Assembly: GCA_041666545.1 (NCBI GenBank)
Contig: JBAYGS010000006.1
Location: 1,154-65,153 of the forward strand
DNA length: 64,000 bases
Reading direction: 5' to 3'
DNA from: Minisyncoccota bacterium
GTDB lineage: Bacteria; Patescibacteriota; Minisyncoccia; Phycocordibacterales; JBAYGS01
The notes under the pieces were generated by a model that made no database searches, was not told the origin of the DNA, and worked only from the letters and a program-made list of their open reading frames with translations. The translations under genes were made by a program, and so were the position numbers. This document shows positions 1,586 through 59,502 of the stretch, piece after piece (positions within the stretch are counted from its first letter, which is position 1; the number at the start of each line of letters is the position of its first letter).

Positions 1586-1779
1586 CCCGTTAGAAATAGG
1601 AAATGCTCAACGAACTCCCTTGTTGAAACATTTTTCTATTTGTTAGATCTAATAATAATTTACGCATATTAGACTTTTTGCGTAGGCATTTCCGTCTAAT
1701 CTCACTGGAACTAAACCCTTTCTCAATCTGACAATTAACCACCAAACTCCCGCCCTTGAAACAAAATATTTCTAACGGG
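1586..1779. mobile_element. MITE-like element copy 1 (194 bp). TIRs are CCCGTTAGAAAT at 1586-1597 and ATTTCTAACGGG at 1768-1779
   Basis: Perfect 12-bp TIRs (14 bp with the flanking AT). Flanking direct repeat TCCAT, which is ATGGA on the coding strand and contains the start codon of the 956..1585 gene. Internal stem AGGAAATGC (1599-1607) pairs with GCATTTCC (1686-1693). Confidence 0.6.
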
Positions 1780-2996: not shown

Positions 2997-3131
2997 AGAA
3001 TTTTTATTAGTCTTTAATAATTCAAAATGGAAAAATCAAAGTGTAAAATGACAATGTAAAGCTAAAAACTAAAGAATTATTATTTTACATTTTGAATTGT
3101 CATTTTGATTTTTGAGATTTACATTTTACAT

Positions 3132-3632
3132 TTAAGCCGCTTTTTTCTTTGCAATTTCACTTAGTGCCATAACAAATCCTTGAATCGGACTGTTGATGAC
3201 GTTAACAAACTGCGCTCGCAGAGTCTGCATACCAGGGATAAGGGCGATGACTTTCATCTCCTCTTGGCCGATGAGCTTTCCCTCAAAAACGCCACCCATA
3301 ATTGAGATGACATCCTTGTGAGTCTTGCTGAATTCGTGAATACCTCGAGCTGGCGAAGTGATATCATCACCTTCTTTGAGATAGGCCAAAGCCATCTCGC
3401 CTTCCAAGGTCGGCAACTCCCCCTGTGTTTTGGTGTGCTCCAAAGCTTTTCGAGTCAAAGTCTTTTTCGCGACCAGATAGTTGACGCCAACTTTTCGCAA
3501 TTCATTGCGCAAAGCGGTGGCGTCAGCGACAGTCAATTTGTGAAAGTTCACAAAGACCACCGTTTTGGCCTCCTTGAAAATCTTTTTGAGACCTTCCAGA
3601 ATTTCACCTTTCTTCTGTTTTGATACTGCCAT
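3132..3632 (-). CDS. rplJ: 50S ribosomal protein L10
   Basis: 166 aa. L10 family signature. Lies immediately upstream of rplL. Confidence 0.95.
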   Translation of the reverse strand: MAVSKQKKGEILEGLKKIFKEAKTVVFVNFHKLTVADATALRNELRKVGVNYLVAKKTLTRKALEHTKTQGELPTLEGEMALAYLKEGDDITSPARGIHEFSKTHKDVISIMGGVFEGKLIGQEEMKVIALIPGMQTLRAQFVNVINSPIQGFVMALSEIAKKKAA

Positions 3633-3637
3633 ATTAA

Positions 3638-3679
3638 TTAGCTGTTAGCTGTTAGCTGTTAGCTGTTAGCTGTTAGCTT
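3638..3679. repeat. Tandem heptamer (TTAGCTG)x6, 8 nt upstream of the rplJ ATG
   Basis: Six perfect 7-bp units seen directly. Confidence 0.9.
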
Positions 3680-3984
3680 TTAGCCGGCAAAATCGCTGAC
3701 AAAAACTAACAAAAATCGACCTGTTAAGGCCGAAACAAAGAGAAACTCAGTTGAGAGTTTAAACCTCGGCAGGAGCTTATCGCTAGTTATAAAGTCTCAA
3801 GTTTATAAAGTTCTTCAAGTCCGAAGCAATTATCCGCGACTTTATGAACTTTTTAACTTGATGAACTTGTAACTAACTCGCCTGCTGTCTTTGGCCTTGT
3901 AAATGAAAGATTATCACAAGGCAGTTTTTTGTCAAACAGTTAAGAACCCTCACGAATAGGGCACACGAATATTAACCCCCTCTT

Positions 3985-15078: not shown

Positions 15079-15200
15079 GGAACCCTTACGAATAGGGCAC
15101 ACGAATAAAGTATGCGAATAGCGAAACCACAAATACGCACACACGAATTCAGCTATTCGTGTCATTCGTCCTCATTCGTGTATTGGTGTCGTGTGCCAAA
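15079..15200. promoter_or_regulatory. Divergent promoter region carrying convergent arrays of ACGAAT (x4) and ATTCGT (x3) direct repeats
   Basis: ACGAAT at about 15088, 15102, 15114 and 15153. ATTCGT at about 15165, 15174 and 15183. 40-bp block ATTCGTGTCATTCGTCCTCATTCGTGTATTGGTGTCGTG. Related copies at 3944-3971, 21039-21080 and 21801-21853. Confidence 0.4.
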
Positions 15201-17914: not shown

Positions 17915-17988
17915 TTATTAATTAATCTAAAATTTTGAATTTTGATTTGTCATTTTACATTTTGAGATTTGAATTTTACATTTAAAAT

Positions 17989-19050
17989 ATGGCCTTCAAG
18001 AAAAAAGTAAAGGAAGCAAAAGTCTCAGGAGCGAACATTGACGATACCTTGGCAGCAATCCGAACGAAATTCGGCGACGACTCAATCATGAAACTTGGCG
18101 AAAGGCCAAAAGTTGATTTAGATGTCATCCCAACCGGTTCAATCGGCTTGGACGCCGCCCTCGGTGTCGGCGGTGTCCCACGCGGCCGAATTATCGAAAT
18201 CTTCGGTCCAGAATCATCCGGCAAAACCACTCTCGCCCTTCATATCGTTGCCGAAGCCCAGAAAAAAGGCGGTATTTGTGCCTACGTTGACGCTGAGCAT
18301 GCCATGGACCCAGAATACTCGCGCAAGCTGGGTGTTAAAATTGATGATCTCCTACTCTCCCAGCCGGATACCGGTGAGCAGGGCCTGGAAATTACTGAAA
18401 GCTTGGTACGCTCCGGAAAAATTGATGTTATTGTCATCGACTCAGTTGCGGCGCTCACCCCGAAGGATGAGATCGAGGGTGATATGGGTCAATCGCATGT
18501 CGGCAAACAGGCCAGGCTAATGTCTCAAGCTCTCCGCAAACTTACCGCCATTGTCGCCCGCTCCAAAACTATCGTCATCTTCATCAATCAAATTCGTATG
18601 CAAATTGGCGTGATGTTCGGTAACCCCGAAACAACTCCTGGTGGCAAAGCTTTGAAATTCTACACTTCGATCCGTCTTGATGTTCGCCGAATTGCCCAAA
18701 TTAAAAAGGGCGAAGAGATTGTCGGTGGCCGAGTTCGAGTTAAGGTCGTTAAAAACAAAGTCGCGGCGCCATTCAAACAGACCGAATTCGATTTGATGTA
18801 CAACGAGGGCATTTCCCGCGAAGGTGAAATTATTGCATTGGGCGAGAAATTCGGCTTGATTAAAAAAGTCGGTCAATCATACAAATATGGCGAGCTCTCG
18901 CTTGGTCGCGGCTATGACGCCACCCGTCAATTCTTGAGAGACAAGGAAAACAAGAAAATCGCCGAAGAAATTTTAAAGCAAATCAAGACAACCCTTAAAG
19001 ATGGCACCGCCATTGCCGGAGCTCCAGAGCCAGACGCTAACGAAGAATAA
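17989..19050 (+). CDS. recA: Recombinase RecA
   Basis: GPESSGKTT Walker A. Full-length RecA-like sequence. Confidence 0.95.
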
Positions 19051-41436: not shown

Positions 41437-41584
41437 ATTTTAAATTGGAAACGCAGGCTTGCAAAAGCCAAAATTCGGGTGCTAACTTGAGCACGAATTG
41501 GTGTGTGGGTAAACATTGTGGCCGGTCTCAAATCCTAATACAATTAGTTCCACATTAACCCCTCAAAAAATATGAAAATGAAAT

Positions 41585-41699
41585 CCCGTTAGAGATAGGC
41601 CACCAAGATGGCCGTGCCTGACGGAAAATTCACAAGGAATTATCGAACCAAAATTTTATCACCTAATCACCAATTATGAACAAAAAAATCTCTAACGGG
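41585..41699. mobile_element. MITE-like element copy 3 (115 bp, short form). TIRs are CCCGTTAGAGAT at 41585-41596 and ATCTCTAACGGG at 41688-41699
   Basis: Perfect TIRs. 7-bp flanking direct repeat ATGAAAT (41578-41584 and 41700-41706), which contains the thyA start codon. Internal GGCCA-CCAAGA-TGGCC hairpin. Confidence 0.6.
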
Positions 41700-42614
41700 A
41701 TGAAATCCTTAAGCGAGCGAACAGCCGATAGTCAGTATCAAGATTTGATGCGCAGCGTCTTAAAAAATGGTACCCGAACCCAAAGCCAGCAGGGTGTCGA
41801 CGCCATGACACTGATTGCCCCGATGTCACTCCATTTTAAACTGGCCAACGGTTTTCCGATTCTCAACGAACGCAGTCTTAATCCTAAACGAGCCTCCGAT
41901 TCCAAAAGTGTGGCCGTTTGGCAACAAGCCATTGGAGAGATTTTGGGATTTATAAACGGAGCTCGGACTCAAGCCAAGCTAGAGAAATTCGGCTGTCACT
42001 GGTGGCGCCATTGGGTGACCAAAGAAAAGTGCGAGAAGCGAGGCTTCGAGGAAGGCGATTTGGGCGATGGCTCCTACGGCGCCGCTTTTCATGACTTCCC
42101 AACTGTCGAGGGTGGTACCTACAATCAGTTCAAAAACATTATCGAACAAATCAAGGAGTATCCGCACTTGCGGACACATTTTATTTCCCCGTGGATTCCG
42201 CAATATACGATTCGAGGAAATGGTAAAAGGCAACGGGTTGTGGTGGCGCCTTGTCACGGCTGGATCCATATCAGAATTATCGACAACAAATTGACCCTGC
42301 ACATGTTTCAAAGGTCTTGCGACATCCCGCTCGGCTTACCGCAAAATTTAATTCAATATGCCGCCCTCACAATGGCCATCGCTCAAATCACCGGCTTTGA
42401 AGCCTATGAATATATTCACAGCTTCTCTGATGCCCATATTTATGTCGACCAAATTCCGGCTGTGGAGGAAATGTTAGCCCGCGAGCCAAAGAGGCTGGCA
42501 ACAATGTCCATTGACCCAAACATTAAGGACCTGTTCGATTTTCGGATTGAGCACTTTACCCTATCTGACTACGATCCGCACCCGGCCATTAAAGGTATTC
42601 CGGTGGCGATTTAA
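41700..42614 (+). CDS. thyA: Thymidylate synthase (ThyA-type). The start is placed at 41700, not 41676
   Basis: Catalytic APCHGW. DIPLGLPQNLIQYAALTMAIAQ. The ORF-track start at 41676 reads through the MITE TIR. Confidence 0.85.
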   Translation: MKSLSERTADSQYQDLMRSVLKNGTRTQSQQGVDAMTLIAPMSLHFKLANGFPILNERSLNPKRASDSKSVAVWQQAIGEILGFINGARTQAKLEKFGCHWWRHWVTKEKCEKRGFEEGDLGDGSYGAAFHDFPTVEGGTYNQFKNIIEQIKEYPHLRTHFISPWIPQYTIRGNGKRQRVVVAPCHGWIHIRIIDNKLTLHMFQRSCDIPLGLPQNLIQYAALTMAIAQITGFEAYEYIHSFSDAHIYVDQIPAVEEMLAREPKRLATMSIDPNIKDLFDFRIEHFTLSDYDPHPAIKGIPVAI

Positions 42615-54154: not shown

Positions 54155-54553
54155 CTAATTGCTAAAGTTAATCTCAAAAGGATACATGCCCATACCGCAA
54201 CTGCCCTGGAGACGGCCGGCTGATTGCAGACCCAAATCAATATCGGTTGAACCGCTTGTTGCCAGGAATTGGCTAATTTTTAAGCTCGGGATAATCACAG
54301 AAGCGGAACAGTCAAAAGTCCCGTTGGTATTGAAACGCAAAATCGTCGGTAGCCCAGCTTTAGCGTTACTAATTCTTGGCTGATAACCTCCCTTGGCGCG
54401 AATCTGGACAATTTGCACTCCATTTTCAATCGACACATTATTGGCTGGCAGACCGTTCTCCAGACTGCCATTTGAATTATTTTTGGCCAACGCAAAAGCA
54501 CCGATGATAAGAAGAACGGCAATTGAAATTGAAATGACTGTTGATTTCATCAT
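54155..54553 (-). CDS. Secreted cupredoxin-like domain protein (CGMGM-type, PF13473-like)
   Basis: Signal/TM helix. C-terminal ...GSCGMGMYPFEINF motif typical of the copper-locus cupredoxin-like family. Confidence 0.6.
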   Translation of the reverse strand: MMKSTVISISIAVLLIIGAFALAKNNSNGSLENGLPANNVSIENGVQIVQIRAKGGYQPRISNAKAGLPTILRFNTNGTFDCSASVIIPSLKISQFLATSGSTDIDLGLQSAGRLQGSCGMGMYPFEINFSN

Positions 54554-54554
54554 G

Positions 54555-54806
54555 TTAGAGACCGGAAACGCCTAACCTCTGTCTCAGGTAGCGCTTGCCC
54601 ATCCCAGATTTTAAAAATAATTCTCTCGCCTTGGCACGACTTTCATCAAGACAAGCTTCATAATATAACAATTCAAACGGAAGTCTGCTTTTTGTATAAT
54701 TTGAGCGTCCGGTATTATGTTGGTTAAGGCGTTTCCGAAGGTCACCGGTTGAACCCGTATAAAATGTACCGTCCTTCAAGCTTTTAATAAAATATGTGTA
54801 ATACAT
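54555..54806 (-). CDS. GIY-YIG nuclease-domain protein (start probably at MYYTYF, 54806)
   Basis: MYYTYFIKSLKDGTFYTGSTGDLRKRLNQHN is a canonical GIY-YIG core. The 54875 start would read through the MITE TIR. Confidence 0.75.
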   Translation of the reverse strand: MYYTYFIKSLKDGTFYTGSTGDLRKRLNQHNTGRSNYTKSRLPFELLYYEACLDESRAKARELFLKSGMGKRYLRQRLGVSGL

Positions 54807-54833
54807 AACCTTGCGGTCTCTAACAGGATTAAT

Positions 54834-54950
54834 CCCGTTAGAAATATTTTGTTGTGTTATGCGGCTCATCATCAATGTAATTTATTTAGCTAATATAGTT
54901 ACTTATATCTAATCAATCTGGCCATTTACTAATGGCCAATTTCTAACGGG
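54834..54950. mobile_element. MITE-like element copy 4 (117 bp, short form). TIRs are CCCGTTAGAAAT at 54834-54845 and ATTTCTAACGGG at 54939-54950
   Basis: Perfect TIRs. TGGCCATT-AGTA-AATGGCCA internal hairpin. No flanking duplication. A degenerate extra TIR TCTCTAACAGG lies at 54818-54828. Confidence 0.55.
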
Positions 54951-58067: not shown

Positions 58068-58847
58068 TTAGATGAATAAGATTAAAAGACCGATAATCAA
58101 CATCGCCAAGCCTGCCCAAAGATGAACATCTTGTAGTTGCGTCCTCCGCCAGTCTTTGACTTTATCAATCAAGATTGGACTGGAAGCGATAATCAACACC
58201 GCGACCAAAGGCACAATCAAAATCAGATTGTAGAGCAAGAGATAGCCAAAACCGGAAAAGTAAGTCAGCGAATCATGAAGCAAACCGATAACCATTAGGT
58301 ACGGCCCGCCCATGCAAGGAAATTGGCAGAGCCCAACAAGAATTCCCAGACCAAACGCCGCCGGCAAGGAAGCGACGTTGATGAGCCGGCTCATTGCCCC
58401 GTGCGCCGAATCAGGGATTTTCAAGCGAATCGGAAACTTCGGGAAAATCGCGCCGAGCAAATTCAAAAGGCCGAAAGCGATTAACATCCCCGCCCCTAAC
58501 TTCCCCATAAAGTGGGGCACGCTGAAGATATGGAGCACTTGCAGAAGCCCGATGCCAATTGCGAAATACGCCGCGAAAATTCCGAAGATATAGAGTCCGC
58601 CAATTTGTAGAATTTTCTTGCGTGTGAGTTGCAGACCGAATAGAAATGCGATCGTAATCAAAAGAATCGAGAACGAACATGGATGCACGCTGTCTAAGAG
58701 TGCCGAGAAGAAAACCAGAGGCAAAAGCCAAACCCCGCCCTGACTCACACTCCATAGGAACGACGAAAAGCCCGGGCTGAATTTCAGAATAACAACTCCG
58801 ATGATTGCGAGCAGGACTATTCCAATTGTAATTTTAAGTTTTTTCAC
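58068..58847 (-). CDS. DsbD/CcdA-like thiol-disulfide transmembrane protein (GTG start)
   Basis: TM Cys motifs SVHPCSFS and LCQFPCMGGPY. Polytopic. Confidence 0.55.
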   Translation of the reverse strand: MKKLKITIGIVLLAIIGVVILKFSPGFSSFLWSVSQGGVWLLPLVFFSALLDSVHPCSFSILLITIAFLFGLQLTRKKILQIGGLYIFGIFAAYFAIGIGLLQVLHIFSVPHFMGKLGAGMLIAFGLLNLLGAIFPKFPIRLKIPDSAHGAMSRLINVASLPAAFGLGILVGLCQFPCMGGPYLMVIGLLHDSLTYFSGFGYLLLYNLILIVPLVAVLIIASSPILIDKVKDWRRTQLQDVHLWAGLAMLIIGLLILFI

Positions 58848-58896
58848 AGAATTTTTTATTTTTAATTTTCATTTTTAGATTTCAATTTTTCATTTT

Positions 58897-59502
58897 CTAT
58901 GGCTTAACTAGCGCCTTGATTTCCAACTGGATCGCATTCCCTGCCTCATCCTCCAAATTAATAAACCGACCAATCACCCCGACTCCGGCCGGACCGTGAG
59001 CATTTGGGTCATAAATCGCCCGAATAACGCGACTCTCCCCCGCCTTAATGATTTCATTGGCCGGCGGAACATAACCCATTCCCGGCATACCGAAAGGCCC
59101 CTTGGTACTGCCGTCTTCTCTAATCAATATAGCTTTAGTACACATGCAGGAAGTCGTGACCTTTTTGAGATTAATGTCGTTGGCAGTTGGATTGGTAATC
59201 GTAAAATCCTTTTCCACATTTCCATCTTTCATCGAGATCGTGCCGAAATCATAGAAGATCTCCGGAGCATAGAGCGTACTAGTAGCTGTATCGTACCCGA
59301 TGGCAGGATGAAAACTTGGGTCAACATCCCCCACTGATGCAGTATTGGTATTTCCGGTATTTTTTACATTCTTCGGATAGCCCCATACCAGAATAAATAC
59401 CAGAATCAATAACGTGAGAACCGCAATAATCACTATTTTTAATTTCATAATTGAATAATTAGAGAAACATAATTTAATAACAAATAGCAACAAGCCCGCC
59501 AA
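58897..59502 (-). CDS. DUF1573-domain protein
   Basis: YDFGTI...FTITNPTANDINLKKVTTSCMCT resembles the DUF1573 signature (SCGCT). Confidence 0.6.
   Translation of the reverse strand: MAGLLLFVIKLCFSNYSIMKLKIVIIAVLTLLILVFILVWGYPKNVKNTGNTNTASVGDVDPSFHPAIGYDTATSTLYAPEIFYDFGTISMKDGNVEKDFTITNPTANDINLKKVTTSCMCTKAILIREDGSTKGPFGMPGMGYVPPANEIIKAGESRVIRAIYDPNAHGPAGVGVIGRFINLEDEAGNAIQLEIKALVKP

Follow-up and report, generated by a model that had tools for sequence, protein, structure and literature searches.

Miniature elements at start codons in a Paceibacterota genome as very probable deletion derivatives of a family of small GIY-YIG elements

The nearest published parallel to the elements described here is the Ssn/NTS system, in which single-domain GIY-YIG proteins of about 94 amino acids cut single-stranded DNA beside a hairpin repeat; copies of this repeat border the nuclease gene itself and are dispersed across the genome (Chenal et al. 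2025; PMC11893778). The authors of that study noted the insertion sequence-like layout of the NTS-ssnA-NTS unit and proposed that it had been domesticated. Duplications, empty sites and a target rule are not among the features they reported; the genomes analysed were RefSeq reference and representative ones, with Patescibacteria unmentioned in the text (PMC11893778). The elements described here resemble this system in that a single-domain GIY-YIG protein of about 90 amino acids (83 to 95 in this case) is encoded by a gene flanked by its own repeat, and in that the repeat, scattered near genes, contains a hairpin with a short conserved 5' flank. They differ from it by true inverted termini (TIRs), target duplications, empty sites and miniature derivatives, by insertion at start codons with a translational overlap with the host gene, by their occurrence in a CPR lineage that was unsampled in the Ssn study, and by a nuclease whose nearest solved or annotated relatives are of the UPF0213/YazA type. 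The SRM pattern HGTCWYN(0-2)YYVSBRHN(0-5)WNVSBRGN(0-2)RNCYNB has no match in the five elements of the window, one match elsewhere in the window and five in 1.34 Mb of related loci. We treat the relation to Ssn as one of working alike rather than of membership.

The closest proteins in both sequence and structure are the stand-alone Slx1-like/UPF0213 proteins (BH0048, EF2693, YazA), which are minimal GIY-YIG domains; a phylogenomic study of 2006 assigns 1zg2 and 1ywl to a bacterial Slx1-like group of stand-alone minimal domains (PMC1564403). In the literature searched, no link between UPF0213-type proteins and inverted repeats or mobility was described. In the REP/REPIN-RAYT and IS200/IS605 systems, as here, short palindromic non-autonomous elements accompany a small gene that has the same repeats on both sides, and recognition is likely to take place at a subterminal hairpin, a feature suggestive of a single-strand mechanism. 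Those systems depend on HUH (Y1) enzymes, however, and have neither a target duplication nor long TIRs, whereas here the only open reading frame (ORF) is of the GIY-YIG type, the termini are 13 nt long and 4 to 6 nt are duplicated. Free-standing GIY-YIG homing endonuclease genes (T4 Seg, I-TevI family) have the catalytic fold, the selfish character and the position beside host genes in common with our elements, but they possess a separate DNA-binding domain, lack inverted termini, target duplications and ORF-less derivatives, and spread by homologous repair at one cognate site. Correia (CREE), RUP, ERIC and BOX elements are alike in size, in having two size classes and in being gene-proximal and co-transcribed, with inverted termini that form a long RNA stem. 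Correia elements have termini of about 26 bp and a TA duplication, and we know of no cognate nuclease of this kind for them. An earlier note on the DNA studied here had pointed to the Correia elements. This is a resemblance only, and membership of that group is not supported, given termini of 13 nt, an ATGNN duplication and the lack of sequence similarity; none of these repeat families is known to be restricted to start codons. Thus Correia, REP/RAYT, IS200/IS605 and the homing endonucleases each share some features and fail defining ones. A literature search, in which the Ssn study and the phylogenomic study of 2006 were the sole sources of relevance, yielded no description of a GIY-YIG start-codon element of this kind, and the large family of minimal start-codon-targeting elements reported here is apparently undescribed.

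The window, by which we mean the whole stretch of 64,000 nt that was analysed, comes from a MAG of Candidatus Paceibacterota (CPR). It is cellular and not viral, since it carries rplL/rplJ, efp, rpsF-ssb-rpsR, argS, glyA and thyA; a phage origin was considered and rejected on the basis of these ribosomal protein and tRNA synthetase genes and of zero matches in a phage collection. Searches of Rfam and for tRNAs found no known RNA families or tRNAs. Four repeats with exact CCCG...CGGG cores are present, in two size classes of 194/188 bp and 115/117 bp, as the earlier note had described. All four end in perfect 12-nt cores, CCCGTTAGARAT and its complement, within the CCCG...CGGG limits, and the 14-mer ATCCCGTTAGARAT occurs ten times in the window at two mismatches or fewer, against 1.05 expected (none of 100 shuffles reached 10).

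Copy 1 (1586-1779, minus strand) has a core of 194 bp, and its stem-proximal terminus abuts the ATG (1585-1583) of the gene at 956-1585, on the minus strand. An outer T at 1780 is followed by the upstream duplicate ATGGA (1785-1781), matching the host ATGGA at 1585-1581; the stem arms lie at 1599-1606 and 1686-1693. Copy 2 (21546-21733, minus strand, 188 bp) is located between rpsF and ssb and abuts the ATG (21545-21543) of ssb (21081-21545, minus strand), with an upstream duplicate ATGTA plus T at 21739-21734 and stem arms at 21559-21566 and 21639-21646. Copy 3 (41585-41699, minus strand, 115 bp) is oriented opposite to its host gene thyA, of which the ATG lies at 41700 on the plus strand; its upstream duplicate is ATGAAA plus T (41578-41584) and its subterminal hairpin lies at about 41598-41614. 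Copy 4 (54834-54950, plus strand, 117 bp) has no start codon at either edge and is situated directly upstream of a GIY-YIG element. It is flanked by TTAA/T...A/CTAA, an imperfect 4-nt duplication, and has hairpin arms at 54919-54926 and 54931-54938. Its orientation is inverted relative to copies 1 to 3, a point that the earlier note did not make. With perfect termini of 12-14 nt, a length of 115-194 bp and nothing coding beyond incidental upstream ORFs (uORFs), the window copies have the makeup of miniature mobile elements (MITEs). The tiny uORFs noticed before do exist and encode MDPVRNILFQGREFGG in copy 1, MYPVRDVLLSF in copy 2 and MKSR* in copy 3. The window copies are older than the near-identical ones found within other single genomes: internal identity amounts to 64% between copies 1 and 2 and to 62% between copies 3 and 4. 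This age is a point against the explanation, as activity in this genome may lie in the past.

A degenerate terminus adjoining copy 4 led to a fifth, ORF-bearing element at 54551-54827 on the minus strand, absent from the list in the earlier note. Its diverged termini, CCTGTTAGAGACCG ... CGGTCTCTAACATG, show two to three mismatches to those of the MITEs, and a long-range stem is formed by GGAAACGCC/GGCGTTTCC. The 83-aa nuclease ORF (54555-54806, minus strand) is bracketed by ATCCTGTTAGAGACCG ... CGGTCTCTAACATG and ends within the right terminus at a TAA stop (54557-54555); in the source record the gene is called as 104 aa. The element abuts the ATG of a cupredoxin-like gene (54155-54550/54553). 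At the left junction, ATTAAT is found, probably a mutated ATGAAT, so that ATT stands in place of the captured ATG. This nuclease copy may not be the cognate or active partner of the MITEs in the window.

An ORF-bearing partner with shared termini is present both in the window and in every homologue locus examined, and a comparison of about 200 related loci revealed one anatomy throughout: 13-nt termini (TCCCGTTAGAGAT...A), TACG and a covarying stem beside one terminus, and a target duplication of 4-6 nt, usually ATGNN. In the first homologue loci that were fetched, the next gene begins exactly 5 nt past the nuclease ORF in every case, with a junction of the form ...cttcctATCTCTAA/CGGG/ATG, and CCCGTTAGAGAT is found 5-9 nt upstream of the ATG of the ORF. 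The stem-proximal end is laid out as TACG-stem-CTATCTCTAACGGG/ATG. Among 80 further genome loci, two ORF endings occur. In type A, a TAA stop lies inside the terminus, 4 nt before the host ATG (TAAcgggATG), while in type B the ORF runs on across the terminus and stops at a TGA sharing bases with the host start (GGGATGA). A scan for terminus pairs delivered 77 ORF-bearing units of 273-285 bp and 42 ORF-less units in size classes of 57-77, 95-120 and 188-194 bp. The ORF is intact in about 97% of the TIR-bounded full-size units.

The base 5' of CCCG is a T in all 95 elements that abut a start codon, and the terminus is therefore the 13-nt TCCCGTTAGAGAT, with an outer T...A belonging to the element. 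The complementary A at the far end is the A of the host ATG, and the A of the element together with the duplicated TG rebuilds the start codon. This has a bearing on the flanking duplications. The strings ATGGA(T), ATGTAT and ATGAAAT had been read correctly in the window, but not their lengths of 5, 6 and 7 bp, since the outer T is part of the element. Variation in length does exist, to a lesser degree than had been thought: excluding the outer T, 45 elements have a duplication of 5 nt, 8 elements one of 4 nt and 11 elements one of 6 nt, and in 31 it is diverged, with similar values in an independent metagenome sample. Left duplicates that are diverged or absent, in about a third of the cases, count against an explanation by mobile elements. 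In a symmetric reading, a T...A element duplicates 4 nt (range 3-5) starting with TG. The few insertions at sites other than ATG have the same geometry (TTCA, TTCCA, CTAA).

Besides the termini, a cis-acting module is conserved. In elements of 115-120 bp, among them window copies 3 and 4, a 7-bp hairpin ends 1 nt from the inner edge of one terminus and is preceded by (T)ACG. Pairing is maintained in 96.8% of the cells of the alignment, six of the seven pairs change on both sides, none of 500 shuffles matches this, and slid-register controls collapse. What is a short hairpin in these MITEs takes the form of a long-range stem in full elements, where it spans the ORF: TACG-GAAGCGCC, within the codons of the catalytic DLRKRL motif, pairs with GGCGCTTCC adjoining the right terminus. 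This stem covaries across 76 elements (GGAAGCGCC/GGCGCTTCC, GGAAACGCT/AGCGTTTCC, GGAAACGTT/AACGTTTCC and others), and synonymous-site diversity is 0.028 in the codons of stem and terminus versus 0.353 elsewhere (p = 5e-6). Copies 1 and 2 carry the long-range stem with a loop of about 75 nt, and its arms covary between them, as the earlier note had proposed (GGAAATGC/GCATTTCC versus GGAAGTGC/GCACTTCC); furthermore, both copies keep the 3' end of the nuclease ORF, oriented as in full elements. Since the ORF-less elements keep both termini, TACG and the stem, they are internal-deletion derivatives of full elements. We consider it very probable that the repeats are non-autonomous MITEs derived in this way from start-codon-inserting GIY-YIG elements of 273-285 bp, which are widespread in Patescibacteria/CPR.

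The preference for start codons is pronounced. An ATG followed by an ORF of at least 50 codons is abutted by 61 of the 77 full elements and by 26 of the 42 ORF-less pairs, compared to 0.7% of random positions. In the metagenome sample, chosen solely by the 17-mer of the right end and containing 121 unique ends (31 full, 85 ORF-less), an ATG follows 79 of the 121 right ends, and an ATG with an ORF follows 75 of the 86 that have the outer T. The question raised by the earlier note, whether the elements insert by an unusual mechanism or selection acts at initiation sites, was the right one and is partly resolved. It could be imagined that no active targeting is involved, and that a preference for a short sequence (ATGRA) combined with the removal of intragenic insertions leaves mostly start codons. 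Indeed, most duplications are ATGAA, ATGGA or ATGCA, insertions outside ATG have similar T-initial and A-final duplications (TTCA, TTCCA, CTAA, TAAA), and in ordinary genes, too, the second codon most often begins with A or G. By a crude count, ATGRA pentamers number 376 at called starts versus 755 in non-coding DNA, from which such a preference with intragenic purging predicts 33% at start codons, against the 87% observed (75/86, p = 4e-25). Furthermore, ORF-less copies, which need no expression, also sit on start codons. As the sole explanation it is rejected on these numbers, and we regard an account of this kind as unlikely. Either the insertion mechanism senses another feature of start sites, for example promoter-open DNA at a leaderless +1, or selection removes other intergenic insertions.

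Several comparisons bear on mobility. Occupied and empty orthologues are both present in 32 host-gene groups. In one clean pair, with 98% identical host proteins, locus L033 is empty (AAAAATACAA/ATGAGCC) and L025 is occupied (AAAAATACAA[ATCAG-T-CCCG..117 bp..CGAG]ATGAGCC); in another, L071 reads TATAATGGGCCCT/ATGGAAACA and L056 contains [ATGGA-T-CCCG...CGGG] at the same point. Aligning empty with occupied alleles in this way confirms the target duplication. The site of copy 1 is empty in five relatives, with host protein identities of 91, 85, 81, 80 and 62%, while in L003, a distant orthologue of the same gene (37% identity), a full nuclease element occupies the identical nucleotide position and is likewise flanked by an ATGGA duplication. 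Within single genomes, different start codons are occupied by ORF-less copies with 94-100% internal identity, each with a site-matched duplication. Nuclease elements differ in position between close relatives and have several copies per genome. The sequence evidence supports the view that the four repeats are real miniature mobile elements. Together with the TIRs, the duplications, the multiple copies without ORF and the ORF-bearing partner, the empty sites bear out the earlier description of a MITE-like family placed on start codons, and the idea that precise excision would restore an intact start fits these comparisons as well. The spacing of about 20 kb between copies 1, 2 and 3, which had seemed curious, is a coincidence; it is without support because the positions are set by the starts of host genes, because elements 4 and 5 break the period and because five close relatives have nothing inserted at the site of copy 1.

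The same loci can be read in terms of a homing endonuclease that cuts empty alleles, which are then filled by homologous copying, with ORF-less copies mostly as products of decay in situ and new sites arising, rarely, through ATGRA microhomology repair that mimics a duplication. The same start codons are occupied in distant lineages, a PrgI-like gene at no fewer than 9 loci and the copy-1 gene both in the window and in L003, and what copies 1 and 2 retain of the ORF, its 3' end in the orientation of full elements, would suit decay in situ. The variation in duplication length, with a displaced 12-nt duplication in L055, and the frequent difference between left and right duplicates, which is natural if the left copy is donor-derived, also agree with such a process. 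However, homing does not readily account for nearly identical MITEs at different genes of one genome, each with a duplication that matches its own site, nor for a MITE facing an empty site between L025 and L033 with their 98% identical host proteins. Copy 3 has an ATG duplication in spite of its opposite orientation, the nuclease is without a DNA-binding domain of the kind found in homing enzymes, and conserved termini and a stem are needless for pure homing. Homing therefore seems distinctly unlikely to us as the origin of the elements.

The nuclease itself is a compact protein. Its ORF matches PF01541 (E = 2.7e-16; 60 bits versus a cutoff of 22.6). Its 406 homologues are 83-95 aa long, and almost all of them belong to Paceibacterota, Nomurabacteria or further CPR groups; the organism labels of some bins (Saccharibacteria, Planctomycetes, Clostridia) are given as deposited and may reflect binning noise. 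At 50% identity, 4,290 clusters reach E <= 1e-10, and a search for plasmid relatives gave only Firmicute YazA-type matches. The catalytic-motif residues Y3, Y5, Y16-T17-G18, R26, H30 and E50 are invariant across 33 homologues. An AF2 model (pLDDT 91) predicts a single domain and no extra DNA-binding domain, and its Foldseek/PDB neighbours are, in order, UPF0213 (1zg2, 1ywl), the structure-specific endonuclease SLX1 (TM 0.65-0.73) and the catalytic domain of I-TevI, the closest solved match being 1zg2 (E = 3e-11). The median dN/dS of 0.11 indicates purifying selection.

To our knowledge, no GIY-YIG transposase has been described, and we know of no strand-transfer activity for a lone 83-aa GIY-YIG domain. 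It is conceivable, then, that an unrelated transposase elsewhere mobilises the elements and that the GIY-YIG gene is a passenger or a domesticated regulator of transformation of the Ssn type; the Ssn authors proposed domestication of the NTS-ssnA-NTS unit (PMC11893778), and the 64-kb window contains one diverged nuclease copy versus four MITEs. Against this, an element of 276 bp leaves no room for another gene, the ORF extends into the right terminus, and the codons of the catalytic motif contain the cis stem. The low dN/dS and the intact state of the ORF in almost all full-size units, as well as positions that vary among close relatives with several copies per genome, are likewise at odds with a passenger, and we hold this explanation to be improbable. 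That the repeats are instead a vertically inherited regulatory leader or structured RNA, as their gene-proximal placement, strong predicted RNA structure (z = -2.8, -4.1) and covarying hairpin might suggest, is already refuted by empty orthologous sites with clean boundaries, and with unrelated host genes, both orientations, target duplications and no matching Rfam family it is hardly credible. A conserved leader lacking empty sites, which the earlier note had named as grounds for dropping its reading, is not what the loci show.

The preferred reading, that of mobile GIY-YIG elements with MITE derivatives, can be formulated as a mechanism. Comparison of loci shows that an element inserts immediately 5' of the ATG of a gene and duplicates 4-6 nt beginning with the start codon, and that its right end rebuilds the host ATG together with the duplicated TG. 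The mobilising enzyme would be the nuclease, which would recognise the stem and the terminus and, like the Ssn nucleases, would probably act on single-stranded DNA. For their own transcription and translation, full elements would use the promoter (often a leaderless one) and the start codon of the host gene, whose translation would be kept up by termination-reinitiation coupling. What the sequences establish is the anatomy and the target rule, together with the duplications and empty sites, the origin of the MITEs from full elements, the cis stem and the selection on the nuclease; association with the termini, purifying selection and the overlap with the cis-elements point to the GIY-YIG nuclease as the putative mobilising enzyme. 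Taken as a whole, the scheme would make these elements, of about 276 bp, minimal autonomous transposons of a new class, in which an 83-aa GIY-YIG transposase would act on a hairpin and a terminus, probably in single-stranded DNA, integrate specifically at the starts of transcription and translation of often leaderless genes, hijack the promoter and start codon of the host gene and keep that gene expressed through a rebuilt ATG and stop-start coupling. We put this wider proposal forward tentatively, as a serious candidate that could well prove wrong.

With regard to expression, Shine-Dalgarno-like motifs precede just 9% of 755 control starts in these genomes, and many genes look leaderless. The motif TANNNT, often as TGcTAnnnT, is present 6-7 nt upstream of the ATG at 34 of 69 element targets versus 22% of control starts. 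Leaderless promoter geometry in only about half of the targets, and the operon-internal position of ssb, count against the explanation. After insertion, the duplicated ATG occupies the old start position. In 11 full elements the nuclease frame is open from the captured ATG as far as a TGA that shares bases with the host ATG, and in four loci (L081, L085, L090, L099) the nuclease has no internal methionine, so that only the captured host ATG can start it there. Since stop and start keep an invariant spacing (TAAcgggATG or ATGA), termination-reinitiation probably couples the nuclease to the host gene. In ORF-less copies the uORF from the duplicated ATG stops inside the element in 23 of 33 cases, and coupling thus fails to explain translation of the host gene at these copies. 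RNA folds of copies 1 and 2 are strongly structured (the z values given above), with paired termini predicted to sequester the host AUG, which is a point against the explanation; one may speculate that processing of the stem yields a short-leader mRNA at ORF-less copies. The right terminus was also considered as a leaderless promoter for the host gene and discarded by eye, TATCTC with a 7-nt spacer being devoid of the invariant final T of the -10 box.

Known transposase folds comprise DDE, HUH, the serine and tyrosine recombinases and Cas1, and if the nuclease mobilises the element, GIY-YIG would join them. If this is true, the element, with about 276 bp, would be by far the smallest self-sufficient mobile element; the smallest insertion sequences known to us measure roughly 700 bp. 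Nor do we know of another element that lands on a start codon, rebuilds the ATG and couples its own stop to the host start. The target rule illustrates how a parasite can lodge, with little harm, in those nucleotides of a gene that are most sensitive. Furthermore, the duplications, empty sites and deletion derivatives provide comparative evidence for the idea, raised for Ssn/NTS, of small units of a GIY-YIG gene and repeats that are mobile or once were. A compact nuclease with a defined substrate of hairpin and terminus could serve as a tool, as has been argued for Ssn. For the annotation of CPR genomes, it is relevant that the elements create spurious N-terminal extensions or fusions: gene callers often report MNPVRD... 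extensions on them, and thyA in the window is called with 312 aa. Finally, a second subfamily exists, with an outer C...G and longer termini (TTCAC-CCCG...), which is situated away from start codons.

Among the related loci fetched for comparison, the element most often occupies the start codon of a PrgI-like gene (L013, L014, L016, L031, L040, L053, L070, L074 and L082). This gene heads a type IV secretion or conjugation-like cluster, with TraC-like and TraG-like genes and a T4SS pilin gene, and its use as a target could provide the element with a route of horizontal spread.

Insertion at start codons affects the annotation of the host genes. In copy 3, the ORF-less element that abuts thyA, an internal ATG lies in frame with thyA (window 41676-41702), and because of it ORF callers lengthen ThyA by 8 residues (MNKKISNG). 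Judging from the duplication, the original start is at 41700. The representative search also returned several long 'fusion' proteins containing the nuclease domain, for example of 600-655 aa, which may be read-through artefacts similar to the ThyA extension, or real fusions. In the window and loci L025-L104, Shine-Dalgarno usage is very low (about 9% of long-ORF starts). About 22% of starts have a positioned -10 box 6-7 nt 5' of the ATG, and this implies that leaderless mRNAs are widespread in these CPR genomes. About 100-160 nt upstream of the orthologues of the copy-1 host gene (L224-L230), an extended -10 (GTGCTACAATGG) is conserved, and after it, between rplL and the MEILE.. gene, comes a stretch of about 100 nt that is conserved too. 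This stretch is possibly a small RNA or leader; an Rfam search with its counterpart in the window (about 1790-2050) gave no match.

Elements of 66-69 bp with main-family termini, whose interior contains two GC-rich hairpins, are found at L013 18443, L070 2149, 9757 and 18252, L075 18616, L089 502, L097 7720 and L098 16312, and a further MITE subfamily ends in ...GATCGCGATCTGCTTCTAACGGG|ATG (L013, L016, L036, L040, L061, L070). A subfamily with outer C...G has the extended termini TTCAC-CCCGTTAGAG...CTCTAACGGG-GTGAA (L054, L075, L084, L093, L103, L115, L116, L139, L145, L179, L219), and its insertions are not at start codons. Several of its members are in bins labelled as non-CPR phyla, and the nuclease gene of L084 is surrounded by five ORF-less copies in tandem. 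Finally, L016 carries a second, different small GIY-YIG gene (1150-1422; 90 aa, weak T5orf172 match) within an inverted repeat, CCCCGTAGTAGATTT / AAATTCACTACAGGG, related to the main-family termini yet distinct, and an ORF-less element at about 1449-1579 that begins ATGGAT|CCCGTAG and precedes the following gene. These appear to belong to a sister family that shares the habit of the main one.

The window contains other repeats as well. A 47-nt repeat (TATTCGTGTCATTCGTCCTnATTCGTGTATTGGTGTCGTG...), composed of CACGAAT-like sub-repeats, is present at 15154-15200, 21039-21085 and 21812-21858 in copies 87-94% identical. It lies immediately 3' of the stop codons of rpsF and ssb and at one further site; in loci L014, L056 and L091, also from Paceibacterota, similar runs (ATTCGTAATTCGTAATT) lie ahead of start codons. 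AT-rich, ~10-nt-periodic intergenic repeats (ATTTTACATTTTGAATTGTCATTTTGA...) occur in direct and inverted copies at 3019-3135, 17919-18005 and 58831-58904, where they adjoin ribosomal-protein genes, and a tandem array of seven TTAGCTG units spans 3638-3686.
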